A DNA stretch of 64,000 nt from Pelagibacteraceae bacterium AG-333-C14 (GCA_003282485.1 QBZD01000002.1:4769-68768); one strand, 5' to 3'. Positions 35,249 to 58,630 are shown, numbered from the stretch's first letter. The notes: generated from the sequence alone by a model not told the origin. Numbers and translations are program-made.

Positions 35249-36337
35249 TTAGTAATCTAGTGCTCGACAGTCCTGGGAAGACCAGCCCAAATTTAATTTA
35301 TCACCAAGATTAAGCTTTGAATTACTGCTCGCGTTTGGAACTTTTAAAATAAAATCATCGTTACCCAGCAAATTTACACGTACTCTTGTATGATCGCCGT
35401 GGTAGATAATTTCTTTTATTTCAGCTTCAAATCGATTTTCAATCTGCTCAGTCGGATTAATGCTAACCCTTTCAGGTCTGAGAGAAATTCTTGATTTTTC
35501 ACCAGCAGAAGATACTGCTATTGGGTTAGCTATTATTATCTCTCCAGTGCTGGTTTCAACTTTTGCAGAACCAGAAGCTAGTTCTTTTACAGTGCCGGTA
35601 AAAGTATTATTTTCACCAATAAAGCCAGCAACAAAAGAATTAACCGGCGTCTCGTACAATTCATTTGGACCAGAAAGCTGTTGAACTTTACCATCATTAA
35701 AGACAGCAATTCTATTTGACATTGTTAATGCTTCGCCTTGATCGTGTGTAACATATACGACTGTAACACCCAATGTTTCATGAATATGTTTTAATTCGTA
35801 TTGCATACTCTCACGCAAGTTTTTGTCTAACGCACCTAAAGGTTCATCCATTAAAACTAATTTAGGATCAAATACTAATGCTCTTGCAACAGCGACACGT
35901 TGCTGTTGACCACCAGATAGTTGTGCAGGCATTCTGTTTTCAAAGCCCGTTAGTGAAACCATTTTTAAGGTCTTATTTATACGTTCTTCAATTTCTGACT
36001 TATCAATTTTTCTAACTTTTAATGGAAAGGCTAAATTTTCAAATACTGATAGGTGAGGAAAAAGAGCGTAGTTTTGAAAAACCATACCAATACCTCTTTT
36101 GTGAGGAGGTATATTATTGATTGGGTTTCCATCGAAATATATCTCTCCATTAGTAGGCGTCTCAAAGCCGGCGAGCATCATTAACGTAGTTGTTTTACCT
36201 GAACCTGATGGCCCCAATAGAGTTAAAAATTCCCCTTCAGCAATATCAAGGTCCAAACCTTTTACGACCAGTTCTTTACCGTCGTAACTTTTGTCAACCT
36301 GTTCAAATTTAACAAAATCTGACTTTTTTCCACTCAT
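35249..36337 (-). CDS. ABC importer ATP-binding protein (PotA-like)
   Basis: Walker A 'GPSGSGKTT', signature 'LSGGQQQRV', Walker B 'LVLMDEP' and a C-terminal TOBE-like domain. Confidence 0.9.
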   Translation of the reverse strand: MSGKKSDFVKFEQVDKSYDGKELVVKGLDLDIAEGEFLTLLGPSGSGKTTTLMMLAGFETPTNGEIYFDGNPINNIPPHKRGIGMVFQNYALFPHLSVFENLAFPLKVRKIDKSEIEERINKTLKMVSLTGFENRMPAQLSGGQQQRVAVARALVFDPKLVLMDEPLGALDKNLRESMQYELKHIHETLGVTVVYVTHDQGEALTMSNRIAVFNDGKVQQLSGPNELYETPVNSFVAGFIGENNTFTGTVKELASGSAKVETSTGEIIIANPIAVSSAGEKSRISLRPERVSINPTEQIENRFEAEIKEIIYHGDHTRVRVNLLGNDDFILKVPNASSNSKLNLGDKLNLGWSSQDCRALDY

Positions 36338-43364: not shown

Positions 43365-44432
43365 ATGGATCCAAACTTAGAAGCAAAAAAAGACAAAGTT
43401 ATTGATCTCATTAACAATCTAGAAGACAGCAACTTTGCATTGTTGCTCTTAATTCATATTTCTCGGTATCAAAATTTATTTTTGCATACAGAACCTGATT
43501 GGTCAAACAGCCCAAATAATTGGATAACTAAAGACAGACGACTCCAAGATGAGTCTATTGGAGTTCTTTCGTTCATCATTCTTTATTCTCTTACCAATGC
43601 ACATGTAGATGAAAATCTTTTTCCTGAATATAGAAAGCAAATTAAGGCAATGAAGCTTGAAGATTTCTTAGATAATAATTTTTTTATTACTCCATTTACT
43701 AATTTTATTGGAAAAAAAATATCTCTCAAAGTTCTTGAGGCATTTTTTTCAATTCCCCGTGAAAATATAAGACGATATATAAATTCTTTGATAGAGGCTG
43801 GATTTATTAGTAAAGACAAAACGTATGGCTATCTTGTAAACATGGAGGCGTATGTTCAATATATATTTACTGACTCTCTTAGTAAAATTATGAAGTCACT
43901 CATGAGAACATTCGATGATATTATTGCTAACCTTGAGGAAAAGTACCAACTAAAATTAAATTTAAAACCAATCTCATCGATAGATTTAGGAAAGACAAAA
44001 CCAGACGTATGGAATCGAATTAGATTGCCTATGTATCATTTTTGGGTAAGAGTTCTAACACTAGAAGGCAATGATCACCTTTTAAGCCCTAATGATAGAG
44101 TTGTCTTGTCTGCATCGATCTATTTTAGGAAACGTACAGGAATATTAAATTTCGCTAATATTTCTGAGTTATACGAAAATGATTATTTATTGCCAACAAA
44201 TATTTCGTCAATTGCAGAGGCATCTAAAATGCCACGAGAAACTGTGAGGAGGTGTAGTAATAAATTAATAAAGATGGGACATTTTGAAAAAAAAGGACGT
44301 CAATTGTTTAGAACTAATTACGCTCATAAAAAAGATGGAGAAATAGCAACATTTATCAAGAATAAAGCAGTTACAACTCGCGACATGATGAATTTTTATT
44401 TTAGAATCTATGAAGATTTAGTTCAGATTTAA
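43365..44432 (+). CDS. hypothetical protein with two winged-helix-like modules (putative DNA-binding regulator)
   Basis: 355 aa with an internal duplication: 'FSIPRENIRRYINSLIEAGFISKDKTYGY' (aa ~128-156) and 'SKMPRETVRRCSNKLIKMGHFEKKGRQLF' (aa ~288-316). Confidence 0.55.
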   Translation: MDPNLEAKKDKVIDLINNLEDSNFALLLLIHISRYQNLFLHTEPDWSNSPNNWITKDRRLQDESIGVLSFIILYSLTNAHVDENLFPEYRKQIKAMKLEDFLDNNFFITPFTNFIGKKISLKVLEAFFSIPRENIRRYINSLIEAGFISKDKTYGYLVNMEAYVQYIFTDSLSKIMKSLMRTFDDIIANLEEKYQLKLNLKPISSIDLGKTKPDVWNRIRLPMYHFWVRVLTLEGNDHLLSPNDRVVLSASIYFRKRTGILNFANISELYENDYLLPTNISSIAEASKMPRETVRRCSNKLIKMGHFEKKGRQLFRTNYAHKKDGEIATFIKNKAVTTRDMMNFYFRIYEDLVQI

Positions 44433-47167
44433 ATTGAGCACATTAAAATAATTTCTTCATTACACACTAGTTCAGCTTCAACAATTGAGCTGTTTTGAGC
44501 GCTTAATTGTGTATCAAGAGCTTCCAGCATAGACTTTGCTTCATTCATTGGCACCGGACCTACAATTATGGAATAGTCGTTTTTATCTAATTTATCGACA
44601 TTGATATCATATTTGAGAAATCTGCTGTCAAATCCCATGACATCGTAAATATAATTCATAAAACTGAATGCAGAATTGCCACGTGTATAGGATCCAATTT
44701 TTATATAAACAAATTCAGCATCGCTGGTATCAATTGATAATTCAGCTTCTTCAATATCACTTGCTTGGGCACTAAATGCATTCGATACAACTTCTGTAGG
44801 CTCTTCGATGAGTTGAGTGAGATCTTCTAATGCTTGAGTTGCTTCTTCAGCTAATTTATTTTCTAATTCAGCAGCATTGCTAAGTTCTGTAAGTAAATCT
44901 CTTGCAGCAGTAGCTTCTTCTACAAGACTATTCTCATCAACAGTATTTAAAATTTTCTTTTTTGGTAAAACACTAACTAATTCTAATGTTTCTTCAGTAT
45001 TATCAACTATAGCCTCATCATTTGGTAAGAGTGGTGCATCTAGTTGACTCTCCATGTCATCAACTTCTGTAATGGCTGCTTCTTCATTATCAACAGAAGC
45101 ATCATCAAGTATATTTTGAGCTTTTTGAAGAGTGTTATCAACAGAGTCTAATAAATCATTAAGACTATCAGCATCATTAATGACCATCTCATTTGAAACG
45201 ACATAATCATCTAAATCAATACTTGGCTCATCGATAATTTCTGTAATCTCTGGAATTTCGTCATCTGTTGTAATGTTGTTCGCTTCTTTTTTATCCAGAC
45301 CCAATTGGATAAGTTTTTTTCTTGCACCTTCACCTTCTTGGGCAAGAAATTCACCCTCATCCATAAATTGAAGTGTAAAATTGTCCTCAACTGAAACAAG
45401 AGCATTTGCAACTGAAACTTTTAACTTAATTCCTGACACATCACTTGGTGGATTGCCCACAAACGATAAATCAGAAGTTAAAAAAGCAAGCCATCTGGGC
45501 AAAGGAGTTCCATCTTCTTGCGTAGCTTGAAAACGTAATTTACCTGGCCCACTGATATTGAAAGTATTTTCCGAAATTTGAAATTTATTACTCGTTTGCT
45601 GTGTATTGATTGGATCATTTATAATCAGAAGCATGGGATCTTGCTCGCTGATAGGAAGATTTACGGCTGCTTGGTAAACTTCTCCCCATTCGGAAAGATT
45701 GGTTTCAATATTTTTACTTACATCCTCAATCGATAAATTTTGATGATTATCAGGAAGAATATCTTTTCCTATTGATGCATAGATTTGACCGATACTATGC
45801 TGCATTTCAGAAAATGCTAGATCTCGTCTGAGTTCCGCAACGAGTAAACTCGCTTCTTCTCGAATAACTTCAAGTTCACCAAATCTTGAGACTTTTTGGG
45901 CATTTTGAACTTGTTTACTTATCCTTTGTGCAACATCTAAATATCTTTGTGCGGTATCATATTCTTCAATGGCCAAGGCATAATTCATATTTGAGAGGTG
46001 TACTTGAGACAGTACTGTCATGGCTATCGCAAGATGACGTTCTGCAATTAAATCTTTACTTGCTTCTGATGATTTTCTTACGGCGCCTAGAGAAAATACG
46101 TTAAAAAGATTAGCTCCAATTGAAGCTCCGTATTCTGTCGTATCTTGGTTTAATAAATATTCATTATCAGAATATCCATACGTGGCATTGAATTTTATAC
46201 TAGGGATCAAACCTAATATAGCTGCTTTAGTATCCTTACTGGTAATTCTTTTTTGATATCGACTTTCCATGAGTTCAGGTCTTGAAACGAGAGCCATCTC
46301 TTCCATTGTTTCTATGCGCATATTTATATTGGTGAGGTAAGTATCGTCGCTTGATAAACTAAACTTTTGGCCAGGTAGTAATCCCATGAGTATTGCAAGC
46401 TCATTTTTAGAATTTATTAATGCCCTTTGTTGAGTTTGTAGCGTTCTCTGTACGTCAAGTAATTCTTTTTGATAAAGCAACGAGTCCATAGGTGCAGATA
46501 TGAGTAGTTCTTCAATATATTGTGAATCTGCAAGAGCAGTTTCAACTCTATCAAGAAGTGGATTCAATTTTTTTAAGAGATTTTCTGACGCTTGCGCTTT
46601 CCAGTAAGCACGAATGATGTCTCGTGTGATATTTTGAGTTGCCTTTCGCTCAAGTTCTTTTGCAATTAAGTAGCGATCTGCTTGCTGTCCAGCACGTATG
46701 TAAGATAATCCAAAGTCAAGAGCATTCCATGTAAATTCAATGTTTCTAGTTTCCAAACCTTTATCTCTTGAAATTGTATAAGACTGTGTTCCATCTAATG
46801 CCGGAGCATCTCCCATATCATTATCTACGCCAACACTTGTTGATGGTTGCAATTCATTAAACTCAGAGTAACCTGCATTGAGTGCAATATCAGGCAGCAT
46901 ATCAAATCGTTGAAGATCACTTTGTCTTTGAGCTAATGCTGACTCCATAACACTTATTCTTAAGTCACGGTTGTTTTTAATTCCAATAGCAATTGCAGTG
47001 TGCAGGTCTATGTTTTCTAGAGGTGCCTCAACTGCAAGCAAAGATAAATCCTTTTGAACACTTACATTTAATTTTTCTGCGTCGATAACATTTGGTGTTC
47101 GAGCGCAGGCGCTGAGTGCGATGAATAGGAAAAATATAATTATTTTTGTACCAATTATTCTCATCAA
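44429..47167 (-). CDS. TolC-family outer-membrane lipoprotein with a C-terminal extension (cadherin-like Ig domain, acidic linker, SPOR-like domain)
   Basis: 912 aa with lipobox 'FIALSAC' (Cys21). The region aa ~30-480 is coiled-coil/beta-barrel like TolC/OEP. 'PLPRWLAFLTSDLSFVGNPPSDVSGIKLKVSV' is a dystroglycan-type cadherin-like motif. A D/E-rich linker of about 200 aa follows. The C-terminus 'YIKIGSYTRGNSAFSF...YSIIVGPVPMNEAKSMLEAL' is SPOR-like. Confidence 0.8.
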   Translation of the reverse strand: MMRIIGTKIIIFFLFIALSACARTPNVIDAEKLNVSVQKDLSLLAVEAPLENIDLHTAIAIGIKNNRDLRISVMESALAQRQSDLQRFDMLPDIALNAGYSEFNELQPSTSVGVDNDMGDAPALDGTQSYTISRDKGLETRNIEFTWNALDFGLSYIRAGQQADRYLIAKELERKATQNITRDIIRAYWKAQASENLLKKLNPLLDRVETALADSQYIEELLISAPMDSLLYQKELLDVQRTLQTQQRALINSKNELAILMGLLPGQKFSLSSDDTYLTNINMRIETMEEMALVSRPELMESRYQKRITSKDTKAAILGLIPSIKFNATYGYSDNEYLLNQDTTEYGASIGANLFNVFSLGAVRKSSEASKDLIAERHLAIAMTVLSQVHLSNMNYALAIEEYDTAQRYLDVAQRISKQVQNAQKVSRFGELEVIREEASLLVAELRRDLAFSEMQHSIGQIYASIGKDILPDNHQNLSIEDVSKNIETNLSEWGEVYQAAVNLPISEQDPMLLIINDPINTQQTSNKFQISENTFNISGPGKLRFQATQEDGTPLPRWLAFLTSDLSFVGNPPSDVSGIKLKVSVANALVSVEDNFTLQFMDEGEFLAQEGEGARKKLIQLGLDKKEANNITTDDEIPEITEIIDEPSIDLDDYVVSNEMVINDADSLNDLLDSVDNTLQKAQNILDDASVDNEEAAITEVDDMESQLDAPLLPNDEAIVDNTEETLELVSVLPKKKILNTVDENSLVEEATAARDLLTELSNAAELENKLAEEATQALEDLTQLIEEPTEVVSNAFSAQASDIEEAELSIDTSDAEFVYIKIGSYTRGNSAFSFMNYIYDVMGFDSRFLKYDINVDKLDKNDYSIIVGPVPMNEAKSMLEALDTQLSAQNSSIVEAELVCNEEIILMCSI

Positions 47168-47350
47168 TTAAGGATATCTGTTTACTAGCTGTTATGAGAA
47201 GGGAATATAGACAAATGGCTTAAAACTCTAAAAAAAATTTGCCCAAAATGGGTATTTCAAGCTTATGAGAGTACCTTTAGAATTTTAGTCATGTATAAAG
47301 AAAAGGCTAAATGCCAATAATCATACTGGTGCGAAAAACTATATATATAA

Positions 47351-50300
47351 ATGAGCAATAAACTTATTCAGGCCTTGGAACCCCGTCTTATGCTTGACGG
47401 TGCAGCAGTCGCAACTGCAATTGATGCGGTTGATGATTTAGCTCAGTTTCAAAAATCCGAAAGCGACAAGTCATCTAAAGCAGATCACTTCAAAGTTGAT
47501 AAAGACACAAAGTTACCTTTTGTAAATTTAGATGCATCAACTCAAAATGCAAAATCAAGGCAGATTGTATTTATCGATAGTACGGTTGAAGATATTGAAA
47601 CTCTAATTAACAGTTTTGACAACAATACAGACGTGCATGTCATACAAAGTGATCAAGATGGATTTGTTACTATGCAAAATATTTTATCATCGCAAGAAAA
47701 TATAGATGCGGTTCATGTCATTGGTCACGGTAGTGTAGGACAGATTGCCTTTGGTACAGCTGTATTAAACAGTGACACATTAAATACTTATGAAAACATT
47801 CTCCAAGAGATTGGAAATAGTCTCTCAGAAAATGGAGACATTTTATTTTACGGTTGTAACGTAGCCGCAGATCAAAGTGGTGAGATCTTAATCAAACAAA
47901 TTGCAGATATTACTGATGCAGATGTAGCGGCATCAGATGATGTGACTGGTAAGGGTGGCGACTGGGATTTGGAGAAACATACAGGCATCATCGAGACAAA
48001 AAATATTACAGTTGCAGATTATGATTATGCACTTGATGCATACGGAGTAGATTCAATTAATTCAAGTGTTGTTGCTATCCATGATGCGACAAACTATGAG
48101 GCACGTTGGACAGGTGATAGTACTAACCGAGACGGACAACAGGATCCAAGTTCAGATCGATTTGTTTTATCTCAGGAAAGAGCCAGCGTCACTAGTGGCA
48201 CAGGCACATTAAATTTTGACGTCTCTGCTGGAGCAAGTTCATTCACACCCAGTGCAAGTAATCCAGTCCATGTTTATTTGCTTTTCTCTAATGATGAAAC
48301 AAATAGCAATTCGAGAAGACAGGGTAGCAGAGTTGGTCAAGTAACTTTTGATAATGAAATTCTTGGTATTTTTACAAACCCACTAAATACCATTGCAATG
48401 ACAGGGATTTCAAAATCAGGTGCCACATACCCAACATCGAGTTCAGATAAAATTGGAATGAGGGATTTAGAATATAAGAATGACAATGCTCCAGGACAAA
48501 GTGGAAATGGTGACTGGTTTGCAATATCAAACAGTAACAAGACCATTCAAATTGGTACTAAAAACGGTTTAAAAGGTGACTTTGTTCGTATCATTACCAG
48601 AGCACCAGTTTCAAACAATGACCCTGTTGGTAACAATGATACTGGCGCAGTTAATGAAGATGCAAGTGTCTCAGTAAGTTCAGGTAGTGGCGTCTTGTCA
48701 AATGATACAGATGCTGATGGAGATTCACTCACTGTAAGTGCAATATCAGGAGGATCTCTTGGATCAGCTCTAAATGGCACATATGGACAGCTAACCATGA
48801 ATGCAAATGGTAGCTACACGTATACCGCAAATAGAGATGCTGCAGACCCTCTTGATCCAGGCGATACAGTAACAGATACATTTACATACACCGTATCCGA
48901 TGGAACCGATACAGACACCGCAACGCTCACGATTACTATCACAGGAGTTAACGATCCAATAACAGCCGTGAATGATACAGATGCCGTAAATGAAGATGCA
49001 ACCATCAATCGAAGCACTTCAGACTCTCAAGAATTGGACCATGATGATACCGACCCTGATGCCGATGATGCATCTGGAAGCTTCACCATAACAGCAATTC
49101 GAACAGGCAGAGAAAGTGCAAGTGGAACCAGTGGTACGGTTGGACAAGCGCTTACTGGTACCTATGGTGTGTTAACTGTTGCTGCGGACGGTAGTTATAG
49201 TTATGCAGCGACAACAAGTGGTGCAGATGGCTTAGCTCACGGAGCGACAGCAATTGATTACTTCACCTACACAGTCAGGGATCATTCTAGTAGTCCCAAT
49301 GATACAGATACAGCTGAACTTGCAATTACAGTTACAGGAGTTGGACCAGTGGCATCGAATGATACGGGAGCAGTTAATGAAAATGCAACGCTATCTAAAA
49401 ACGCAGGTGCAGGCGTCACTGCAAATGATACAAGCGGTGATACAGAGAGTCTCGATGTAACTGCTATTTCGTCTAATGGTACTGGAACTTCTGGCACAGT
49501 AGGGCAAGCCTTAACTGGGACTTATGGTGTTTTAACATTGAATGCTGATGGAAGTTATTCATATGTTGCAAATACTGCAGCTGCTGAAGCGTTAGATGCT
49601 GGAGACAGTGTAACAGATGTCTTTACTTATACTGTGGCAGATGATGATGATGCAAGTACAGACACGGGAACATTAACAATCACCATTACAGGAGTAGATG
49701 ATGATCCAGTTGGCGTTAACGATACTGGTGCTGTTAACGAGGATGCAACACTTGAAGTTAACCAGGTAAGTAGCGGTGTTTTAGCAAACGATACCGATGC
49801 TGATGCTGATGCAAGTTTAACAGTTTCAGCAATTTCTGGTGGAACTGTAGGACAAGCAAAAAATGGCACATATGGCGCACTTACCTTAGCTTCTAATGGT
49901 ACTTATACTTATGTGGCCAATCAAAGTGGGGCTGACGGCCTTGCTGCTGGTGCCACTGCAACAGACACCTTCACATATACAGTGAGTGATGGAGCAGGAA
50001 CCACTGATACAGCTACTTTAACAATAACTGTTACAGGAATTGGACCACAAGCTGTAGATGATACAGGCGGCGTCAATGAAGATGCAACTCTCACCGTTAA
50101 TGAAGCATCTGGAGTGATCAGTAATGATGATGATAACAGTAGCTTTGATAGTGAAAGTTTAGCAATAACAGGCATTAGAACTGGTACTGAGTCTGGAAGC
50201 GGTTCGGCTGGAACAGTTGGAGCTGCATTAACAGGCACATACGGTCAATTGACAATCGCTGCTGATGGAAGTTATGAGTATGTTGCTAACCAAGCTGCGG

Positions 50301-53300
50301 CCGATGCTCTTGACCCAGGCGATACTGTTACGGATACATTTACTTACACCGTAAAAGATGATGATAATAAAAATGCTGATACTGGTGAGCTTGTTATTAC
50401 GGTAACGGGTATTAATGATGACATCACTGCAGTCAATGATACAGATGCACTAAATGCTGGTGCAACAATTACTCGAAGTACCTCAGATACACAAGAGTTA
50501 GACCATGATGATACAGACCCAGATGCGGATGATGTTTCAGGATCATTTACAATTACAGCAATTCGAACTGGGGCAAGTGAAGGCGCTGGAACCGCTAAAA
50601 CTATCGGACAAGCTTTTACAACGACTTACGGTACTATGACAGTCAATGCAGATGGATCATATACCTATGCTGCTGATCAAAACGGCTCAACAAGTTTGAG
50701 TAATGGAGCAACTGCAACAGATAGTTTCAACTATACTGTACAAGACCACAATAGTGGAGATACAGATACTGCAACTCTCGTGATTACCATTACTGGATCA
50801 AACAATAGAAACCCTGTCGCATCAAATGATACTGGAGTCATTATTGAGGATGGCACACTTACTGTTGCAGATGGTGGTTCTGCAGTTACAGGCTCTGATA
50901 GCAATAACAACAATGAAAGTGGTGACACTACAGGTGATGTCTTAGTCGGGGATACTGATCCTGATGGTGATACCTTAACAGTTACTGCTATTTCAGGAGG
51001 AACAGTTGGAGATGCCGTTACAGGTACATTTGGTACACTGACAATTCATTCAAATGGACGTTACACATATGAGGCTGATCAAGCCGCAGCTGATGCTCTT
51101 GATCCAGGTGATACTGGAACTGATACTTTTACATATACGGTAGGGGATGGAAATGATGGATTTGATACTGCAACACTAACCTTTACAATAATTGGTGCTG
51201 ACGATGATCCAGTTGGAGTGAATGACACAGGGTACATTAACGAAGATGCGACTTTAAGTGTTTCAGATGGCGGTTCTGCAGTAACTGGTTCTGATAGCAA
51301 TAATAACAATGAGAGCGGCGATACAACAGGAGATGTTCTTGCGAATGACACGGATGCGGATGGGGATGCAAGTCTTGTAGTTTCTGCGATTTCTGGTGGA
51401 ACATTAGGCCAAGGAGTAGCGGGCACTTATGGTACTCTGACTTTAAATGCAAATGGTAGTTATTCATATGTAGCTAATCAAAGCGGCGCAGATGGACTTG
51501 CAGCAAATGCAACTGCAACTGATGTGTTCACTTATACCGTAAGTGATGGTACTGGGACAACAGACACAGCAACGCTTACAATTACAGTAAAAGGGGTTGG
51601 TCCAGTTGCAAGCAATGATACGGGCAGTGTGAATGAAGATGCAACGTTATCTGTAAATGCAGGTTCAGGAGTTACGTCAAATGATACTGGCGGTGATACT
51701 GAAAGTCTAGCGGTCACAGCAATTAGAACAGGCACTGAATCAGGCAGTGGATCTTCGGGTACTGTTGGTCAATCATTAACAGGTACTTATGGTACACTTA
51801 CCATCAATGCTGATGGATCATATACATACGTTGCTGATCAAGCAGCTGCCGATGCTTTAGATCCAGGGGACTCTGCTACAGATACTTTTACTTATACTGT
51901 GGCAGATGATGACGATAAAAATACAGATACAGGTGAGATTGTCATAACTGTTAATGGAACAAACGATGATATTGTTGCAGTTAATGACACTGACGCTGTG
52001 AATGAAGATGCGACAATCTCCCGATCAACCAGTGATACACAGGAGCTTGATCATGATGATACAGATGCTGACGGTGATGATGTTCCAGGATCATTCACAA
52101 TTACAGCTATTAGAACAGGATCAGAGAGTGGATCTGGAACGTCCGGAACTATTGGGCAAGCTTTAACAGGCACATACGGCACACTTACGGTTAATGCTGA
52201 TGGATCATACACATATGTGGCTGATCAAAATGCAGCTGACAGTATTGTAACTGGACAGACAGCAACGGATACATTTACTTACACGGTTAGAGATCACAAC
52301 AGTGGATCCACAGATACAGCAGAGCTTATCTTTACAGTAACAGGTATTAATGATGAAAACCCTGTGGCTGTTGATGATACAGACACTGTACCGAAAGGTG
52401 AAACAATTACGAGAGCAGCCGATACAACTTTTGCACTTAACGCAGACGACACTGATGCAGATGGGGAGTCGTTAACAATTTCTGCAATTAGAGTAGGACA
52501 AACTGAAGGCGGTGGAGATTCAGGTACACTCGGTTCAGGTCTTGTAGGCACATATGGTACTCTTACTCTTAATGCTGATGGAAGCTATAGTTACGTTGCT
52601 GATCAGACTGCAGCAGATAGGCTTAAACGAGGAGAGAGTGCAATTGAATATTTTAATTACACTGTAACAGATGGAACAAATGAGGACATTGGTGTGCTTG
52701 CAATTACTGTTACTGGTAAAAGTGATCCACCCGTACCGGTTGATGATACTCTTGCAATTGATGCTGGTGCAACCGGAATAAAAGATGCAACTAATGGTGT
52801 TTTAAATAATGATACGGACCCCGACGGTGACAGTTTAACAGTAGACACTATAAGAACTGGTGAAGAGTCAGGTACTGGCACATCCGGTACAATTGGATCA
52901 CCTCTAACAGGAACGTATGGTGACTTAACTATAAATTCTGATGGTGGCTATGAATACAAGGCTAATAATGCGAAGGCATTAAATCCAGGTCAAACAGCAA
53001 CAGAATACTTTACGTATACCGCAACAGATGGAGAAACGCCTGTAGAAGCTCAGATAGCCATTACTGTGACTGGTATCAATGATCCACCTGAAGTAATTAA
53101 TCCAATTGAAGTGCCTGTATTAGTACAAGGGCAAAAGATTACAATCAGACACAAACAAACCTTTGATGATCCAGATACTGGTATTTATGATATTACTGAA
53201 TACAAAATTATTGATCCTGAGACAGAAGCAGAAACCAGTCTACCAGAAGGTCTTTCATTAAGGGAAAATAAACTTACAGGAAGACTTACTACACCAGGTA

Positions 53301-54454
53301 CATACACTATTACTATTAGAGCAATCGATGGTGCAGGACTCTATGCAGATCATACATTCACCATCACTGTTATTCCAAAGGTCATTATTGAGCCAGAGGT
53401 CGAACAGGCAGAAGGAGATTCATTTTCACTTGAGCCAATTGAACCTATAAAAGTAAAGCCTGCTAAAATGCAGGAAGTCATTAATGAGGTGAATATTATT
53501 GATGATGAAGGCTTTACTCTTGATACAATTTCAATTGCAGATACCGCATCCCTATCTAAGCCGCTTAAGTTTAATGGCGGCCTAAGATTGATGGATGCTG
53601 TTGCGAGCGAGGTATCGGGTGATGATAATACAGATTTAGCGATTGGTGTTAAATTAAATGACGATAATCAAAAGAATGTTGAACTATATTCAGGACAATT
53701 ATCCGACGGACAATCATTGCCTGAATGGATTAAAGTTGATCCTGAAACAGGTGAGACAACTGCAGAAATGCCAGATGGGATTGATCAGGTAGAAGTTCAA
53801 CTTGTTGCGTTAGATAAAGATGGAAATACTCGTGATATAAACATCGTTTTAGACAAAGCTAAAATCAAGAATGACCGAGACTTCACTCGTGGTACTGTTG
53901 GTCAAACTAGAGTTGTTGTTGATAATGACGCAAACGTAAACTTGATCAGAGAGAACAACAATGCATCTAATCAAACAGCAAATAATAACTTAAACGCTCA
54001 AACAGATTTTGAAGGCACAATGAAGTTAAGCAGTCTTCAAATGGATGCAGGCCAATACACAGTTGATGTAATTGATGACAATCAATCGAATGTAAAAATG
54101 TATAAAGCTGAGCTAAAAGGTGGTGTTGAACTTCCAGATTGGATTACGATTGATCCTCAAACAGGAAAAATAGCAGCCGACCCATCTAAAGGTCGAACTG
54201 GATCAGCTGCTCCCTCATTCTTAACAGATAGTCTTCAGGTTCTTGAACTAAAGATTATTGCTGAAGATGAAGACGGAAAAGAAAGAGTTATTGAAGTTGA
54301 GATTGATCTTAATGAAATAACGGGTGCTGAGACAGATGATGAAAATTCAGCATCAGATGACGAAATTTCTTTTATTCCACTTGATGAGCAATTAAAGCTA
54401 CACGCTAAGAGAGCGGATAGCTATGGCGAAAAGATTATATCTCTAGTAAGCTAA
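47351..54454 (+). CDS. giant surface/adhesin-like repeat protein (LEPR-XLL N-terminus, DUF4347, 12 VCBS/cadherin-like modules, 3 dystroglycan-type cadherin-like domains)
   Basis: 2367-aa uninterrupted ORF. N-terminus 'ALEPRLMLDGAAVA', DUF4347-like aa 71-208 ('VFIDSTVED...VHVIGHGSVGQIAFG...ILFYGCNVA...GGDWDLE'), 12 modules of about 105-135 aa ('NDTGAVNEDATL...NDTDADGD.LTV.AI.GG..G....GTYG.LT.NA.GSY.Y.A...AAD.L..G...TD.FTYTV.D......T.TITVTG.ND'), then 'LPEGLSL', 'LPEWIKVDPETG' and 'LPDWITIDPQTG' domains. No GGxGxD RTX nonapeptides. Confidence 0.9.
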   Translation: MSNKLIQALEPRLMLDGAAVATAIDAVDDLAQFQKSESDKSSKADHFKVDKDTKLPFVNLDASTQNAKSRQIVFIDSTVEDIETLINSFDNNTDVHVIQSDQDGFVTMQNILSSQENIDAVHVIGHGSVGQIAFGTAVLNSDTLNTYENILQEIGNSLSENGDILFYGCNVAADQSGEILIKQIADITDADVAASDDVTGKGGDWDLEKHTGIIETKNITVADYDYALDAYGVDSINSSVVAIHDATNYEARWTGDSTNRDGQQDPSSDRFVLSQERASVTSGTGTLNFDVSAGASSFTPSASNPVHVYLLFSNDETNSNSRRQGSRVGQVTFDNEILGIFTNPLNTIAMTGISKSGATYPTSSSDKIGMRDLEYKNDNAPGQSGNGDWFAISNSNKTIQIGTKNGLKGDFVRIITRAPVSNNDPVGNNDTGAVNEDASVSVSSGSGVLSNDTDADGDSLTVSAISGGSLGSALNGTYGQLTMNANGSYTYTANRDAADPLDPGDTVTDTFTYTVSDGTDTDTATLTITITGVNDPITAVNDTDAVNEDATINRSTSDSQELDHDDTDPDADDASGSFTITAIRTGRESASGTSGTVGQALTGTYGVLTVAADGSYSYAATTSGADGLAHGATAIDYFTYTVRDHSSSPNDTDTAELAITVTGVGPVASNDTGAVNENATLSKNAGAGVTANDTSGDTESLDVTAISSNGTGTSGTVGQALTGTYGVLTLNADGSYSYVANTAAAEALDAGDSVTDVFTYTVADDDDASTDTGTLTITITGVDDDPVGVNDTGAVNEDATLEVNQVSSGVLANDTDADADASLTVSAISGGTVGQAKNGTYGALTLASNGTYTYVANQSGADGLAAGATATDTFTYTVSDGAGTTDTATLTITVTGIGPQAVDDTGGVNEDATLTVNEASGVISNDDDNSSFDSESLAITGIRTGTESGSGSAGTVGAALTGTYGQLTIAADGSYEYVANQAAADALDPGDTVTDTFTYTVKDDDNKNADTGELVITVTGINDDITAVNDTDALNAGATITRSTSDTQELDHDDTDPDADDVSGSFTITAIRTGASEGAGTAKTIGQAFTTTYGTMTVNADGSYTYAADQNGSTSLSNGATATDSFNYTVQDHNSGDTDTATLVITITGSNNRNPVASNDTGVIIEDGTLTVADGGSAVTGSDSNNNNESGDTTGDVLVGDTDPDGDTLTVTAISGGTVGDAVTGTFGTLTIHSNGRYTYEADQAAADALDPGDTGTDTFTYTVGDGNDGFDTATLTFTIIGADDDPVGVNDTGYINEDATLSVSDGGSAVTGSDSNNNNESGDTTGDVLANDTDADGDASLVVSAISGGTLGQGVAGTYGTLTLNANGSYSYVANQSGADGLAANATATDVFTYTVSDGTGTTDTATLTITVKGVGPVASNDTGSVNEDATLSVNAGSGVTSNDTGGDTESLAVTAIRTGTESGSGSSGTVGQSLTGTYGTLTINADGSYTYVADQAAADALDPGDSATDTFTYTVADDDDKNTDTGEIVITVNGTNDDIVAVNDTDAVNEDATISRSTSDTQELDHDDTDADGDDVPGSFTITAIRTGSESGSGTSGTIGQALTGTYGTLTVNADGSYTYVADQNAADSIVTGQTATDTFTYTVRDHNSGSTDTAELIFTVTGINDENPVAVDDTDTVPKGETITRAADTTFALNADDTDADGESLTISAIRVGQTEGGGDSGTLGSGLVGTYGTLTLNADGSYSYVADQTAADRLKRGESAIEYFNYTVTDGTNEDIGVLAITVTGKSDPPVPVDDTLAIDAGATGIKDATNGVLNNDTDPDGDSLTVDTIRTGEESGTGTSGTIGSPLTGTYGDLTINSDGGYEYKANNAKALNPGQTATEYFTYTATDGETPVEAQIAITVTGINDPPEVINPIEVPVLVQGQKITIRHKQTFDDPDTGIYDITEYKIIDPETEAETSLPEGLSLRENKLTGRLTTPGTYTITIRAIDGAGLYADHTFTITVIPKVIIEPEVEQAEGDSFSLEPIEPIKVKPAKMQEVINEVNIIDDEGFTLDTISIADTASLSKPLKFNGGLRLMDAVASEVSGDDNTDLAIGVKLNDDNQKNVELYSGQLSDGQSLPEWIKVDPETGETTAEMPDGIDQVEVQLVALDKDGNTRDINIVLDKAKIKNDRDFTRGTVGQTRVVVDNDANVNLIRENNNASNQTANNNLNAQTDFEGTMKLSSLQMDAGQYTVDVIDDNQSNVKMYKAELKGGVELPDWITIDPQTGKIAADPSKGRTGSAAPSFLTDSLQVLELKIIAEDEDGKERVIEVEIDLNEITGAETDDENSASDDEISFIPLDEQLKLHAKRADSYGEKIISLVS
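47375..47395 (+). other. LEPRxLL motif (LEPRLML) at residues 9-15 of the giant protein
   Basis: Direct translation: ttg gaa ccc cgt ctt atg ctt, followed by DGAAVA. It matches the N-terminal motif I recall as the 'LEPR-XLL domain' of very large repetitive proteins, which is frequently followed by DUF4347. Confidence 0.7.
48610..53089 (+). repeat. in-frame tandem array of 12 VCBS/cadherin-like coding modules with a 4-module super-repeat
   Basis: Module boundaries are marked by recurring '...TITVTG(I/V)(N/G/D)D/P' then '(V/I).(A/V)(N/D)DT'. The subtype starting 'I(T/V)AVNDTDA(V/L)N...RSTSD.QELDHDDTD' recurs at 48959, 50423 and 51971, a spacing of 1464 and 1548 nt. Confidence 0.9.
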
Positions 54455-54464
54455 GAAAAACCAT

Positions 54465-55184
54465 ATGAACAACATTGTAACATTTGCAGTTATTGCTTGC
54501 TGTATCTTTTTTCCATTTAATTTACTAGCTGAAGAATATTCAACACGTGTTTTGGTAACTGCAACTGAAGAGGCAACAATATCAAGTGAACTTGCCTCAA
54601 AAGTTGAGTCTATTCCATTTGCAGAAGGTACAAATTTTAAAAAATCAGATGTATTAATTAAGTTGGACTGTTCTTTTTTTGAAGCCCAAAAAGATGTAGT
54701 ACAAGCGGAGTTAGAAAGTGCCATCGTAACCTTGAAGAGCAATCAAGAACTTGCAACGATGAGGTCCATTGGTGAGTATGAAGTTCAATTGTCACAAATA
54801 GCAGTAGATAGGGCTAAGTCAGAGTTGAAAATTGCTCAGCTTAATACAGATCGTTGCATTATACGTGCTCCCTATGACGGAACAATGTCCAAAGTGTTTG
54901 TAAATGAATATGAAAGCATTGAAAGGCAACAACCGATGATTCAAATTATTGGCTCTGGAATATTGGAAGCAAAACTTATGATTTCAAGTAAATGGTTGTC
55001 ATGGTTGTCTGAGGGCCATCCATTGACCATTTTAATTGATGAAAATGGTTTAAAATATAGTGCTACAGTGAATACCTTGGGGGCGAATATTGATCCAGTA
55101 AGTCAAACTATTGACGCTACTGCAAAATTTGATGAAAATTATGAAACATTACTTCCTGGAATGAGTGGGACGGCAACATTTTGA
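54465..55184 (+). CDS. small periplasmic membrane-fusion (HlyD/RND-adaptor-like) protein
   Basis: 239 aa. Signal peptide 'MNNIVTFAVIACCIFFPFNLLAEE', a lipoyl/barrel-sandwich pattern ('ATISSELASKVESIPFAEGTNFKKSDVLIKLD ... IIRAPYDGTMSKVFV') and a short coiled-coil hairpin. It starts 11 nt after the giant gene's stop. Confidence 0.75.
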   Translation: MNNIVTFAVIACCIFFPFNLLAEEYSTRVLVTATEEATISSELASKVESIPFAEGTNFKKSDVLIKLDCSFFEAQKDVVQAELESAIVTLKSNQELATMRSIGEYEVQLSQIAVDRAKSELKIAQLNTDRCIIRAPYDGTMSKVFVNEYESIERQQPMIQIIGSGILEAKLMISSKWLSWLSEGHPLTILIDENGLKYSATVNTLGANIDPVSQTIDATAKFDENYETLLPGMSGTATF

Positions 55185-56524
55185 ATGATAATTCCTCTAT
55201 AAAAATTGCGCGACTAATAACACTTGAGAAAAAGTTTCGTAATGCAGAAACTGAAACTGAGCTTACTTTTATTTGTGCCAATGAACTGCGAAGCATAGTT
55301 GATTATAATTTTTTATTCCTTCTCAACAGATCAAGTATAAATCGATTAAAAGTACATACTATTTCTGACCTATCAATTATCGATAGAACAGCACCAACGG
55401 TTACTTTTGTTGAAACATTAATAAATAAAAAAGATCTAGTCAGCTTTGAGGATATTTCGGAATTTAATCTCAACGATACTTCAATAAAAGACTTAAATCT
55501 TATTACTCCTGATAATTTTCCTAAACAATTAATATTTATTCCTCTACGTTCGCGGATTGAAAAAAATATTGGGTATCTAGTCATGGTTAGATCAGAAGTA
55601 ATCAGCAACTCTGAAAAAGATCTTTTACTTCATATTTCAGAAACTTTTAGTCATGCACTCAACTCTTTTAGGTCAAAAAATACAATCATTTCAAATATCA
55701 ACCGTTTATTTACTGGATGGATTAAATGGGCAGTGATTGCTTCTGTAACGGCAGTAATGTTTTTTCCAATTAGTATGACAGCTTTAGCGCCCGTTGAAGT
55801 AGTTGCAAAAGATCCAACCGTTGTGACTTCACCTGTAAATGGCGTGGTAAAAGAAGTTTTAATTAAGACCAATGAAAACGTAAAGCCAGGGACAGAACTT
55901 GTCAGATTGGATGATTTAAATTTTAAAAATCAGTATGAAATTGCGCTTCAAGAGCTTGAAGTGGCAGAAGCAGAGCTTTTACGCATCAAGCAGTCATCAT
56001 TTACAAATCCAGATGACAAAGCTCGTTTAGTTGAGCTATCAACAGAAGTAGGATTGAGAAAAAAAGAAGCAGCATATGCTGAAGAACAATTGAAATACTC
56101 AATCATCTATGCAGACAGAGAAGGTATTGCTGTTGTTGAAGACTTTACTGATTGGCAAGGGAGGCCAGTTAACATTGGAGAAAAAATATTAACCATAGCT
56201 GATCCTGAACAAATTGAATTTCAAATCTTCTTACCCACTAAAGACTCTCTTTTGATTAAAAAAGAAGCAAGAGTAAAAGTTTTTTTAGATAGTGACCCTC
56301 TCAATTCTTTAGACGGTAAGGTATTGCGTACTTCATATAAACCCGCACTTACATCTGAGAATATTTTAGCTTATAAGATCGTTGCAAATTATCATGACAG
56401 TCAAGGTGAGGTTCCAAGGATTGGTTTACGTGGTACCGCTAAGATTTATGGCGAAAAGACAAGTATTTTTTATTACATATTCCGTGTTCCTATAAATCTC
56501 ACGAGACAGTTTTTAGGATTTTAA
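55181..56524 (+). CDS. membrane-fusion (HlyD-like) protein with a cytoplasmic GAF-like N-domain
   Basis: 447 aa. A soluble N-domain of about 170 aa is followed by one TM ('WIKWAVIASVTAVMFFPISM'), then 'VVTSPVNGVVKEVLIKTNENVKPGTELVRLDD', a coiled coil and 'IIYADREGIAVVEDF'. 4-nt overlap with the upstream gene. Confidence 0.75.
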   Translation: MNDNSSIKIARLITLEKKFRNAETETELTFICANELRSIVDYNFLFLLNRSSINRLKVHTISDLSIIDRTAPTVTFVETLINKKDLVSFEDISEFNLNDTSIKDLNLITPDNFPKQLIFIPLRSRIEKNIGYLVMVRSEVISNSEKDLLLHISETFSHALNSFRSKNTIISNINRLFTGWIKWAVIASVTAVMFFPISMTALAPVEVVAKDPTVVTSPVNGVVKEVLIKTNENVKPGTELVRLDDLNFKNQYEIALQELEVAEAELLRIKQSSFTNPDDKARLVELSTEVGLRKKEAAYAEEQLKYSIIYADREGIAVVEDFTDWQGRPVNIGEKILTIADPEQIEFQIFLPTKDSLLIKKEARVKVFLDSDPLNSLDGKVLRTSYKPALTSENILAYKIVANYHDSQGEVPRIGLRGTAKIYGEKTSIFYYIFRVPINLTRQFLGF

Positions 56525-58630
56525 ATGATCGTTCCATATCTAAGACAAGATTTAAAATTGAGCGAGGGTCCCAAAAAAGAGGATGGCTCTTCATCATGGC
56601 TTCTATATGACTCTTTAAGAAATAAATATTTTTCGATAAATAAAAATGCTTTTGATCTTTTAAATAATTGGTCAAGTGGATCTCAATTAGAAGATTTTAT
56701 AAAAAAAATTAATGAAACTAAATTATTAGTAACTAAAGAAGAAATAAGTGAGTTCATAAATTTTCTTGATCAAAATAATTTAACGATCAAAAAAACAAGT
56801 GAAGAAATTAAATCTTTAGTAGTTCAAAAAAACAAAACCAATAAACATTGGTTGCTCAAACTTATTCACAATTATCTATTTTTCAAAATACCGTTAGTAA
56901 GACCTGGTACTTGGCTTCAAAGAAGTTTACCCATTGCCTTATTCTTGAGCTCATTAACAATCAGACGTATTATTTATGGGCTAGGTTTAATCGGAATATT
57001 TTTGACAATAACTAATTATGAGAATTTCCTTTCAACCTTTTCATATTTCTACAACATTAATGGTCTGATCTTATTTGGAATTACAATTGTTTTTGTAAAA
57101 GCATTACATGAGTTGGGTCATGCATATGTAGCTACATACTATAAGTGTAAAGTTTCATCAATTGGCTTAGCCATGTTGGTTTTCTTTCCATTCTTGTATA
57201 CGGATACATCCGATGCCTGGAAACTCACTGATCACAGAAAGCGTTTACTAATAAATTTTGCAGGCATGTTAACTGAACTGCACCTAGCCTTAATTGCTAC
57301 ATTTGCATGGGCCGTATTTCCTGAGGGCATCATGAAAAGTGCAGCATTTTTCATTGCTACATCAAGCTGGATCTCATCTTTATTGATCAATATAAGTCCT
57401 TTTATGAGGTTTGATGGCTATTATGTGCTATCAGACTTTCTTAAAGCTGAAAATTTGCAACCACGCTCATTTGCTTTAGGTCGATGGCAGATAAGAGAGT
57501 GGCTTTTTGGTTTTAAATTTCAACCACCTGAACAGTTGATAGCTAACAGAAGGTGGACTTTTATAATTTACGCATGGGCTACGTGGATTTATCGTTTCTT
57601 CATTTTTATTGGTATTGCATTATTGGTTTACTATTTAACATTTAAAATATTAGGAATTATTTTATTTGTAATAGAAATTGTATGGTTCATTTTATTGCCG
57701 ATTGTCAGAGAAGTCATACAATGGTGGAAGCTTAGAAAATCTATGAAATTCAATAGATCTTCTATGAGGTCAATGATCTTATTTGCAGTTTTTATGTTTG
57801 CTATGCTTGTTCCATGGCGCACATCCCTTAGTTTGCCAGCTGTTATTGAAGAAGGTGTTGTTCTTGATATCTTTGCCTCTGAAGATTCAAAGATAAGAAA
57901 GGTTTTTGTTTCGCATGATCAATACGTAGCTGAAGGAGACTTGCTTGTTATTATGGCCAACCCATTGATCTCTAATAAAGTCGAAAAAGCAATTGACCGC
58001 GTGAAAATGATTCAGCAAAAACTTGATCGTAGAGTGGGATCAGAACTTGATCTTAGCAATCTACTAATACTTGAGAACGAATTACAAAAAGAGATTGAAA
58101 TTCTGAATTCATTGAAAGAAGAAAACAAAGCTTTATCAATTTATGCACCATCAGATGGCATAATAAAAGATTTGATAAGTCTAACCGCTAATCAATGGGT
58201 AAATAAAAAAGATAAGCTATTTTCAATTGTTCAGTCAGAAGAAGTGCAAGTGAAAGCTTTTGTTAGCGAGACGGATCTTGATAAAATAAAAAAAGTTTCA
58301 AGTGGTTACTTTCATGCAAAAAATAATGAATTTGCGAAAGTCAAAGTCGAATTAGTATCATCAAATGTAACTTCAACCGAAGAGTTGCCGTATTTGGCTC
58401 TGACCTCAACTTATGGAGGCACAATTGCATCAAGAGAAATACTTGGAAAGAAACAGGTTCAGAGACCTGAAAATGCTGTTTATCAACTAAATTTCACTTC
58501 CTTAGAAAACCTAAAAGATTTGCAATGGCAGACAGCTGGATCTGTTAAAATAGATTCTGAGAATTATAATATTTTTCAAAATATATTTAATGCTACTACC
58601 TCAATACTCATCCAGGAAAGTGGGTTCTAG
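56525..58630 (+). CDS. fusion protein: PqqD/RRE-like N-domain, polytopic M50 (site-2-protease family) zinc metalloprotease and C-terminal HlyD-like adaptor domain
   Basis: 701 aa. 'KALHELGHAYVA' gives HExxH in a TM helix and 'FMRFDGYYVLSD' is a candidate third zinc-ligand motif, with about 8 TM. C-terminal 'DIFASEDSKIRKVFVSHDQYVAEGDLLVIMANP', a coiled coil and 'IYAPSDGIIKDLI'. The N-terminal 'WLLYDSLRNKYFSINKNAFDLLNNWSSGSQLEDFIKKI...EFINFLDQNNL' is PqqD-like. Its ATG directly abuts the upstream stop. Confidence 0.8.
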   Translation: MIVPYLRQDLKLSEGPKKEDGSSSWLLYDSLRNKYFSINKNAFDLLNNWSSGSQLEDFIKKINETKLLVTKEEISEFINFLDQNNLTIKKTSEEIKSLVVQKNKTNKHWLLKLIHNYLFFKIPLVRPGTWLQRSLPIALFLSSLTIRRIIYGLGLIGIFLTITNYENFLSTFSYFYNINGLILFGITIVFVKALHELGHAYVATYYKCKVSSIGLAMLVFFPFLYTDTSDAWKLTDHRKRLLINFAGMLTELHLALIATFAWAVFPEGIMKSAAFFIATSSWISSLLINISPFMRFDGYYVLSDFLKAENLQPRSFALGRWQIREWLFGFKFQPPEQLIANRRWTFIIYAWATWIYRFFIFIGIALLVYYLTFKILGIILFVIEIVWFILLPIVREVIQWWKLRKSMKFNRSSMRSMILFAVFMFAMLVPWRTSLSLPAVIEEGVVLDIFASEDSKIRKVFVSHDQYVAEGDLLVIMANPLISNKVEKAIDRVKMIQQKLDRRVGSELDLSNLLILENELQKEIEILNSLKEENKALSIYAPSDGIIKDLISLTANQWVNKKDKLFSIVQSEEVQVKAFVSETDLDKIKKVSSGYFHAKNNEFAKVKVELVSSNVTSTEELPYLALTSTYGGTIASREILGKKQVQRPENAVYQLNFTSLENLKDLQWQTAGSVKIDSENYNIFQNIFNATTSILIQESGF
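57107..57121 (+). other. HExxH zinc-binding motif (HELGH) of the M50 protease domain
   Basis: cat gag ttg ggt cat, in frame with the 56525 ORF (residues 195-199), inside a hydrophobic segment. Confidence 0.8.

Follow-up and report, generated by a model that had tools for sequence, protein, structure and literature searches.

A candidate export module built around a predicted leader-reading protease-adaptor fusion, encoded beside giant LEPR-motif proteins from SAR11 to Nitrospira

Tripartite export systems of the TolC kind are, to our knowledge, thought always to rest on an inner-membrane engine of the ABC, RND or MFS type. The substrates of type I secretion systems (T1SSs) carry an uncleaved C-terminal tail signal and commonly, though not obligatorily, RTX nonapeptide repeats, and the genes for the ABC transporter, the membrane-fusion protein (MFP) and the substrate are usually linked. 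Adhesins of the LapA type are served in addition by an N-terminal retention module with a di-alanine site, a LapG-type periplasmic cysteine protease and the c-di-GMP receptor LapD, the display of large adhesins being often under c-di-GMP control. Amongst proteases of the M50 family, EpeP is thought both to cleave and to export its peptide (PMC10885120). Here we describe a gene module in a 64,000-nucleotide stretch of DNA (the window) from Pelagibacteraceae bacterium AG-333-C14 (GCA_003282485.1, QBZD01000002.1:4769-68768). It encodes a giant repeat protein, a TolC-like outer-membrane factor (OMF), two HlyD-type adaptors (MFP1 and MFP2), and a single polypeptide in which a predicted recognition element for ribosomally synthesised and post-translationally modified peptides (RiPP-recognition element, RRE), a site-2 protease (S2P) core and a third adaptor are fused (Table 1). 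We rate the chances as even that these five genes work as a single T1SS-like machine, complete in itself, for secreting or displaying the giant protein. Searches of the literature on DUF4347, LEPR-XLL, SAR11 giant proteins, M50/S2P proteases with HlyD or TolC, and RREs with M50 proteases found no publication describing such a system, in keeping with a preliminary description of the window that had called it a candidate undescribed system; apparent mentions of M50 in reviews of adaptors were rejected as chance strings.

The five open reading frames (ORFs), with the arrangement and domains that the preliminary description had given them, were reproduced by our ORF map and profile searches. The TolC-like gene is divergent from the remaining four, which lie on the + strand and are separated by a 10-nt gap (giant/MFP1), a 4-nt overlap (MFP1/MFP2) and 0 nt (MFP2/fusion), a tight order and spacing that suggests one operon. 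Scanning the divergent region and the end of the operon for promoters and terminators yielded nothing informative. HlyD_3/HlyD_D23 domains were found in three of the proteins, namely MFP1, MFP2 and the fusion.

The closest relatives of the fusion, with 92-97% identity, originated from single-cell genomes labelled ‘uncultured Pelagibacteraceae’, whilst those of Ca. Pelagibacter were 48-49% identical, which assigns the window to an alphaproteobacterium of the SAR11 type. On the Pelagibacter contigs the genes followed the order giant, 237 aa, 444 aa and 700 aa, with the giant exceeding 9,000 residues and the downstream genes being unlike those of the window. An exhaustive HMMER search retrieved a fusion family of 2,647 clusters at 50% identity (E<=1e-30), the top 150 matches being mostly end-to-end (~700 aa), and a scan of one genome per GTDB species located the fusion in at least 594 species-representative genomes. 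The best 80 loci of these at least 594 matches were taken for a census, using our own ORF calls and BLAST to label the components. They derived from Pelagibacteraceae, Colwellia, Marinomonas, Salinisphaera, Hyphomicrobium, Rhizobiaceae, Azospirillum, Micavibrio, Zetaproteobacteria, Methylococcaceae, Pseudomonas, Halomonas, Nitrosospira, many Nitrospira (including Ca. N. defluvii) and Desulfonema. MFP2 was labelled in 76 of the 80 loci, MFP1 in 59, TolC in 52 and a recognisable giant in 56, with absences falling mostly at contig ends. Where at least 3 kb was visible on each side, a giant was present in 46 of 47 loci, no more than two genes from the core in 43 of them and slightly further away in three. 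The co-occurrence of M50-adaptor fusions, extra adaptors and TolC with LEPR-type giants, named as a test in the preliminary description, holds across several phyla. Gene order varied, the giant being upstream in most Proteobacteria and downstream in Nitrospira, and TolC being divergent in SAR11; that linkage was kept despite this rearrangement points to a functional coupling of the giant and the core.

The module is also carried by plasmids. A tblastn search with the fusion against 72,556 plasmids identified 78 replicons, and the DUF4347 N-terminus typical of the giants was found on the same replicons, 10-50 kb upstream and on the same strand. Five annotated examples (an Escherichia coli IncF plasmid and plasmids of Kosakonia, Niveispirillum, Azospirillum and Burkholderia anthina) shared the order giant (DUF4347 or Ig-like), TolC, RND-type adaptor, HlyD adaptor and HlyD/M50 fusion. 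On the 69-kb IncF plasmid (NZ_CP081687.1) the module lies between ISKpn26 and IS1B. Among 5,426 complete E. coli genomes, 24 had machinery genes at least 99% identical, located on plasmids in 21 cases and on the chromosome in 4. Citrobacter plasmids likewise carry the module flanked by insertion sequences (IS). The IncF plasmid also encodes a diguanylate cyclase (L094:8006-9388; L numbers are our locus numbers).

No ABC, RND or MFS transporter was part of the conserved unit, as the preliminary description had noted for the window. Within ±10 kb of the module in the 80 loci, no exporter of these types recurred. Near the modules, 18 ORFs contained an ABC motif, all of them lone ATPases of 133-367 aa; none lay closer than 0.8 kb, most were encoded on the opposite strand, and none was an exporter with fused transmembrane and nucleotide-binding domains. 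The sole ABC protein in the window was an importer-type ATPase (ABC_tran + TOBE_2, 35249-36337), and the sole MFS protein was a sugar symporter 24 kb from the module. No transporter was annotated along the entire 69-kb E. coli plasmid. A hidden conserved energiser was sought by clustering all unlabelled neighbour ORFs of the 80 loci, which gave no family in more than five loci; the extra families that did recur, in five loci or fewer, each reflected lineage-specific synteny.

The protease portion of the fusion passed the Pfam model Peptidase_M50 with 37.2 bits (cut-off 27.2). H195, E196 and H199, together with N289, P292 and D297, were invariant in 43 fusion sequences ranging from SAR11 to Burkholderiales; the catalytic motifs of the S2P core are intact and the core is predicted to be active. 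The NCBIfam model daptide_HExxH (NF041824) matched residues 23-390 at 7.7e-38, with 130.6 bits relative to an equivalog cut-off of 300, and by this profile the fusion is homologous to the daptide proteases, not a member of their family. Databases label the protein variously as ‘HlyD family efflux transporter periplasmic adaptor subunit’, ‘site-2 protease family protein’ and, at JGI, ‘putative peptide zinc metalloprotease’. The full-length AlphaFold2 (AF2) model (pLDDT 82) comprised a helical membrane core (119-428) followed by a lipoyl domain, an alpha-hairpin (480-535) and a beta-barrel, and Foldseek matched the C-terminal third to MacA, EmrA and MexA at ~1e-11. Hydropathy indicated an odd number of transmembrane (TM) segments, the last of them preceded by a Lys/Arg-rich loop; on this topology the RRE would be cytoplasmic and the adaptor periplasmic. 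Besides the catalytic motifs, the most conserved stretch was a TM hairpin at residues 340-402 bearing R357, K374, E384 and E396.

The N-terminal domain of the fusion is predicted to adopt an RRE fold and, by extension, to bind a leader. A first Foldseek search with the full-length model was swamped by adaptor matches, and residues 1-432 were then modelled alone (pLDDT 79). Ranks 1-3 for this portion were the S2P structures mjS2P (3b4r) and SpoIVFB (8vjl), and RseP (7w6x) followed at rank 13; ranks 4-12 were exclusively RREs, including TbiB1 and TfuB1 (both solved leader-bound), CteB and PqqD, with probabilities of 0.75-0.99 and TM scores of 0.59-0.67 on stand-alone targets of 83-94 residues. 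The modelled topology comprised three strands (10-15, 24-29 and 34-38) followed by three helices (40-47, 55-64 and 71-83), the winged-helix order of RREs, which take up a leader peptide as an extra strand. The preliminary description had called this domain PqqD-like and had likened the M50 protease to the C39 leader peptidases of bacteriocin exporters; the predicted structure upholds the former, for which sequence comparisons gave weak support, and a predicted leader-binding fold on an M50 protein makes the latter analogy apt.

The two separate adaptors differ in their architecture. MFP1 scored 105.7 bits with TIGR01730 (RND_mfp; cut-off 94.9) and 1e-12 with HlyD_3, and has a signal peptide (residues 4-22). 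MFP2 matched HlyD_3 at 8.7e-14 and has one TM helix (181-199) after a 170-aa N-domain (nt 55181-55690); its best sequence match in the PDB was the fused TriA-TriB hetero-adaptor 6vej. The N-domain found no match in a PDB profile search. In its family, Pfam GAF was matched in 10 of 28 members and GAF_2 in 4 of 28 (best 2.9e-5), with no match at E<=1 for the MFP2 of the window, and we regard the domain as a putative divergent, cytoplasmic GAF domain and sensor. The TolC-like protein matched OEP in two stretches (9.6e-34) and He_PIG (1.3e-5), and has a signal peptide with the lipobox LSAC. A SPOR domain, proposed in the preliminary description for its C-terminus, was not recovered by Pfam at E<0.1. 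In SAR11 this C-terminus is an extension of ~440 aa (44429-45750 in the window) with a He_PIG Ig domain (516-600), a strongly acidic stretch of low complexity and, at its end, a domain of ~90 aa, whereas the TolC partners on plasmids and in Nitrospira reach only ~500-640 aa.

The giant protein begins with MSNKLIQALEPRLMLDGAAVAT. The NCBIfam models for its N-terminal motif (LEPR-8K; LEPR-XLL, NF012209) scored 16.5 bits, slightly under the cut-off of 17, although the motif itself is plainly visible and conserved. Of the 37 giant N-termini that were visible, spanning SAR11 to Nitrospira, 35 share the pattern A-L-E-(P/S/Q)-R-(I/L/M)-(M/L)-F-D-(G/A)-A-A-x-A-T, with the L, E, R and D invariant among these. 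Ahead of the motif there is usually a long stretch, basic or rich in Ser, except in marine lineages (SAR11, Colwellia), and a low-complexity linker of 40-110 residues (48 aa in the window) separates it from DUF4347. The motif was present in all module-linked plasmid giants and absent from two cyanobacterial DUF4347 proteins that lack the module; in these comparisons it is the LEPR motif, not DUF4347, that tracks with the module. Sec-dependent export of the giant was rejected, as residues 1-120 contain no hydrophobic segment of the Sec type. The remainder of the protein is adhesin-like, with Cadherin_4 (8e-147) in 12 stretches in addition to VCBS, Big_9 and He_PIG, and it passed a model of BapA/Bap/LapF-family large adhesins with 444 bits. 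No RTX nonapeptide array was found in the giant of the window by profile search (no HemolysinCabind match), as had been noted beforehand, and in related giants an RTX regular expression matched at most once each, except in one (L066) with five matches. A plasmid of Qingshengfaniella alkalisoli (L012:19830-35180) encodes a 5,116-aa giant with the variant M-ELEQRIAFDAAA and no module within 20 kb, which implies that substrates can be encoded apart from the machinery; in Endobacterium and Neorhizobium (L069, L089) giants with this variant are linked to a module.

DUF4347 itself is not specific to the system. Of the two module-less cyanobacterial proteins one adjoins an RTX-type protein, and PA0256 of Pseudomonas aeruginosa, also a DUF4347 protein, is a candidate Hcp-borne effector of a type VI secretion system (T6SS) (PMC8262886); the domain seems to be a portable one found across several secretion contexts. 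The pairing of LEPR-XLL with DUF4347, which had been offered as a marker of the system, is thus upheld for the motif and not for the domain. A DUF4347 structure has been solved (PDB 9qpe_G, a 201-aa protein). PDB 9qpe was rejected as a structure of the present machine, since profiles of the M50 fusion and MFP2 matched no chain of it, and it may represent a complex of the T6SS Hcp-effector type (compare PA0256). In the DUF4347 alignment C163 and D157 were invariant and H116 near-invariant, in a pattern of His...Gly and Tyr-Gly-Cys; Pfam matches to Peptidase_C80 were weak (5 of 24 members, best 8e-4, under the cut-off), and in some Nitrospira sequences the ‘SHG’ His of the putative dyad is replaced by Glu or Asp. 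Peptidase C80 is the self-cleaving cysteine protease domain of MARTX and large clostridial toxins, with a clan CD fold and a catalytic His-Cys dyad. That DUF4347 could be a self-cleaving, clan-CD-like domain is, from these sequence similarities, a lead and no more.

The giants also share features at the opposite end. A Phi-x-x-Q-Phi motif, situated 6-45 residues before the C-terminus (mostly 19-33) and followed by a short helix, was found in 29 of 48 C-termini, relative to 8% of interior 50-aa windows; it was unmatched in Nitrospira giants and one Rhizobiaceae group. This tail is a possible, putative C-terminal secretion signal. Whereas the preliminary description had the giant carrying a conserved N-terminal motif instead of a C-terminal signal, the N-terminal motif stands and the word ‘instead’ does not.

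We propose, tentatively, that the module represents a new class of secretion system, in which a leader-reading intramembrane protease-adaptor, two further adaptors and TolC recognise, cut and export LEPR-tagged giants, powered by the proton-motive force or by folding outside the cell, with no ATPase pump; we regard this as possible, though we would sooner expect it to need revision than to stand as worded. In the self-contained machine that we rate above at even chances, the RRE would dock the giant by its LEPR leader at the inner membrane, and the S2P active site would cut at or just past the LEPR motif. The three adaptor paralogues, probably in two copies each, would build a hexameric periplasmic tunnel that opens TolC, through which the unfolded repeat protein would exit, and the GAF domain of MFP2 may gate export in response to a cytoplasmic ligand. 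Because the unit contains no ABC, RND or MFS partner, the membrane domain of the fusion, including the charged TM hairpin, would have to serve as the inner-membrane passage. Energy could be supplied by the proton-motive force via that hairpin, or by ratcheting through Ca-dependent folding of the cadherin/VCBS repeats outside the cell; both are guesses, and energisation is the weakest part of the model.

Several observations weigh against such a machine. We know of no secretion system that moves a chain of 2,000-9,000 residues across the inner membrane without an ATPase, and of no S2P protease that acts as a protein translocator. The conserved C-terminal tail of the giants fits C-terminus-first export better than a cleaved N-terminal leader. 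Sequence support for the RRE is weak, with Pfam PqqD matched in 2 of 25 members and a PDB profile search nearly empty, and the E-values of its fold matches are modest (0.13-0.7), owing to the small size of the domain. Some marine gammaproteobacterial loci have the giant, MFP2 and M50 genes without adjacent MFP1 and TolC; loci of this composition were seen in Colwellia, Marinomonas, Marinobacterium and some alphaproteobacterial metagenome-assembled genomes (L026, L027, L049, L073, L031, L074), and may be a reduced version of the module that relies on a housekeeping TolC. An unlinked ABC exporter (a T1SS ABC protein, MsbA or MacB) may be encoded elsewhere in the genome, and the gene tables of PLSDB are incomplete; the IS-flanked plasmid copies, with their own TolC and no transporter, argue against an exporter of this kind.

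The module can also be read in other ways. The tail, found far above background, would be explained if the giant left C-terminus first and were retained and released in the manner of LapA: the LEPR motif would be held at the RRE/S2P on the inner membrane, the linker and DUF4347 would act as tether or plug within the adaptor-TolC tunnel, leaving the adhesin on display at the cell surface, and cleavage by the S2P, gated by the GAF domain of MFP2, or by a C80-like DUF4347 would free the protein. The giant's score as a BapA/Bap/LapF-family adhesin fits such a scheme, as do the low-complexity linker, the invariant Cys and weak C80 similarity of DUF4347, the GAF-like sensor domain of MFP2 and the diguanylate cyclase on the E. 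coli plasmid. It is nevertheless rather doubtful, in that the 48-aa linker of the window appears, from its length, too short to span a full adaptor-TolC tunnel, the tail is unmatched in Nitrospira and one Rhizobiaceae group, and the putative dyad His is replaced in some Nitrospira sequences. LapG- or LapD-like genes did not recur near the module in the clustering of neighbours, no specific LapG or LapD HMM having been run, and the energy problem remains.

Another reading is that the module is an accessory to an ordinary type I system, with an ABC exporter encoded elsewhere providing channel and energy, the M50 fusion trimming or quality-controlling the substrate and the extra adaptors acting as specificity factors. 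The C-terminal tail agrees with this, and according to a review the characterised TolC-adaptor systems all need an energised inner-membrane transporter (PMC8277102). We consider it unlikely, given that the five genes travel as a unit with their own TolC on small IS-flanked plasmids of E. coli and Citrobacter, that neither the surroundings of the 80 loci nor the 64-kb window contain an exporter-type ABC protein where T1SS genes are usually linked, and that the fusion places a protease beneath the adaptor, in the normal position of the transporter. Least probable by far is that the giant is a bystander and that the RRE-S2P-adaptor/TolC assembly handles a small RiPP-like peptide or other cargo, or signals by regulated intramembrane proteolysis. 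The homology of the RRE-M50 half to RiPP leader proteases, through the daptide model, and the JGI label would suit that reading; yet the giant adjoins the module in nearly every evaluable locus whether placed upstream, downstream or divergently, its LEPR motif tracks with the module, and neither RiPP-modifying enzymes nor other recurrent families of at least 110 aa (at least 70 aa for labelled families) were found nearby.

If the proposed leader-reading system is real, a site-2 protease in place of an engine would extend the list of bacterial secretion mechanisms, would carry the RiPP principle of leader recognition over to giant proteins, and would raise the question of how a protein of 2,000-9,000 residues moves without a dedicated ATPase. 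It would also give a function to the LEPR-XLL motif, to the orphan labels that the fusion bears on thousands of genes and, in part, to DUF4347. The system would operate in SAR11 and Nitrospira, which are among Earth's most abundant bacteria, and the streamlined SAR11, the nitrifying Nitrospira and the plant-associated Azospirillum would each use it to bring their largest protein to the cell surface. Giants displayed there would bear on particle attachment, on interactions with phages and grazers, and on the ‘giant gene’ islands of marine bacteria. Since one copy resides on an IncF plasmid of E. coli, the system is open to direct experiment in a common laboratory organism.

Table 1. Features of the module, its parts and its neighbours (positions counted from the first nucleotide of the window, unless a locus number is given)
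Feature	Position	Strand	Basis or remark
TolC-like OMF lipoprotein, 912 aa	44429-47167	-	ORF map; likely ATG at 47164
Giant repeat protein, presumed substrate, 2367 aa	47351-54454	+	ORF map
Giant: LEPR motif, residues 8-22 (ALEPRLMLDGAAVAT)	47372-47416	+	Proposed leader/recognition signal
Giant: DUF4347, residues 72-219	47564-48007	+	Pfam 6.4e-49
Giant: cadherin-like/VCBS/Big_9 repeat array and one He_PIG, residues ~422-2007	48614-53371	+	
Giant: C-terminal tail motif, residues 2341-2367 (FIPLDEQL...DSYGEKIISLVS)	54371-54451	+	Possible C-terminal secretion signal
MFP1, small secreted periplasmic adaptor, 239 aa	54465-55184	+	ORF map
MFP2, GAF-like domain-TM-HlyD adaptor, 447 aa	55181-56524	+	ORF map
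RRE-S2P-adaptor fusion, 701 aa	56525-58630	+	ORF map
Fusion: predicted RRE fold, residues ~1-90	56525-56794	+	AF2, Foldseek
Fusion: M50/S2P membrane core, residues ~119-430	56879-57814	+	Pfam, NCBIfam, AF2
Fusion: HExxH, residues 195-199	57107-57121	+	
Fusion: NxxPxMRFDG, residues 289-298			Conserved zinc-binding motif
Fusion: periplasmic lipoyl/alpha-hairpin/beta-barrel adaptor, residues 431-701			HlyD_3, AF2, Foldseek
Winged helix-turn-helix (wHTH)-like protein, 355 aa	43365-44432		Adjoins TolC gene
Type III glutamine synthetase (TIGR03105)	within 41950-43290		Upstream flank
ptrB			Convergent; downstream flank of module
soxB-family gene (oxidase)	within 60981-62237		Downstream flank
Tail fiber genes in other loci	L007:23053-25160; L008:39510-40409; L009:26143-28002; L010:15823-16437; L084		L084: ~202-aa ORF before giant

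The module is bounded in the window by the wHTH-like gene and ptrB, as previously reported, and its flanks are housekeeping genes. The wHTH-like protein has two weak winged-helix/HTH-like regions (~120-185 and ~270-315) and no other feature, and is not part of the conserved module of other lineages. Pelagibacter modules (L001-L004, 12100-22103) lie beside genes for glutamine synthetase (Gln-synt_C), a Glu_synthase-like protein, GATase and an ammonium transporter, such that the modules of both the window and Pelagibacter adjoin genes of nitrogen and one-carbon amine metabolism; a conserved region of this kind may be where the module was inserted. In other marine bacteria, giant-protein clusters have been described as replaceable flexible genomic islands (PMC4033161). 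The window has a G+C content of 34%, and that of the giant gene (48001-54000) is 40-43%, relative to 33-36% in its flanks, which may be attributable to Gly/Asp/Thr/Val-rich repeats or to a foreign origin.

Two further observations concern individual lineages. Genes for tail fiber proteins (Phage Tail Collar, PF07484; ~200-330 aa, 1-3 copies) adjoin the module in soil and rhizosphere Proteobacteria, namely Kosakonia, Niveispirillum, Azospirillum, Burkholderia and Pseudomonas, and are absent in SAR11 and Nitrospira; their products might be exported as an additional cargo or act together with the giant. In the complete genome of Ca. Pelagibacter sp. Uisw_114 (L020, CP159818.1, 1025320-1047422), the giant is broken up across four ORFs of 388, 91, 997 and 94 aa, and MFP2 is likewise split, its two ORFs encoding 358 and 94 aa, reflecting either decay of the module or indel errors in a long-read assembly.

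Amongst the described systems close to the module are the T1SSs of large adhesins (LapA/LapBCE, BapA, MpIBP), with which it shares a TolC-family exit, an HlyD-family adaptor and a giant Ig/cadherin/VCBS substrate that lacks a Sec signal and whose gene is linked to the machinery; both perhaps also have a C-terminal tail signal, together with a functionally special N-terminus. It differs in having no ABC transporter, three different adaptors where a T1SS has one, and an intramembrane metalloprotease as the inner-membrane part; as far as the window, the 80 loci and the E. coli plasmid show, it lacks the component that defines a T1SS, the ABC transporter. Relative to LapA, the N-terminus of the giant consists of the LEPR motif and DUF4347 in place of a retention module, and clustering of neighbours found no LapG or LapD. 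The paralogous adaptors of TriABC-OpmH, represented by the MFP2 match 6vej, jointly form a periplasmic tunnel to the OMF and are a precedent for different adaptors sharing one tunnel; TriABC, however, is RND-driven and exports small molecules, whereas the module has no RND protein.

A second set of likenesses lies with peptide export. In the peptidase-containing ABC transporters (PCATs) of bacteriocins and lanthipeptides, as in our proposal, a leader-specific protease is physically part of the exporter, which couples recognition and cleavage to export. PCATs use a cytoplasmic C39 cysteine peptidase joined to an ABC pump, and their cargo is a small peptide with a double-glycine leader; the module has an RRE and an M50 intramembrane metalloprotease on an adaptor, no ATPase, and a cargo of thousands of residues. 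The M50 leader proteases of RiPP pathways (NF041824; EpeP/YydH; TglG/TmoG) have an RRE-like N-domain and an M50 core as in residues 23-390 of the fusion, but lack an adaptor domain and a TolC partner, and cluster with peptide-modifying enzymes and short precursors. The best small-domain structural matches of the fusion N-domain, leader-bound TbiB1 and TfuB1, are B1 RREs of lasso-peptide pathways. Such RREs read YxxPxL at -17 to -12 of the leader, and a Thr at -2 guides cleavage (PMC10368454). The motif of the giants has a similar P-x-(I/L/M) (PxPhi) core and a Thr, which lies 11 and not 12 residues after the Pro, yet it has no Tyr at the equivalent position, and the module has no lasso cyclase or B2 protease; this likeness is a resemblance between sequences, not a test. 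Taken together, the substrate belongs to the adhesins of the Bap/LapF type, there is a substantial chance that its export represents a categorically new, ATPase-independent secretion mechanism, and the system resembles a T1SS/PCAT hybrid of the tripartite TolC/adaptor kind.

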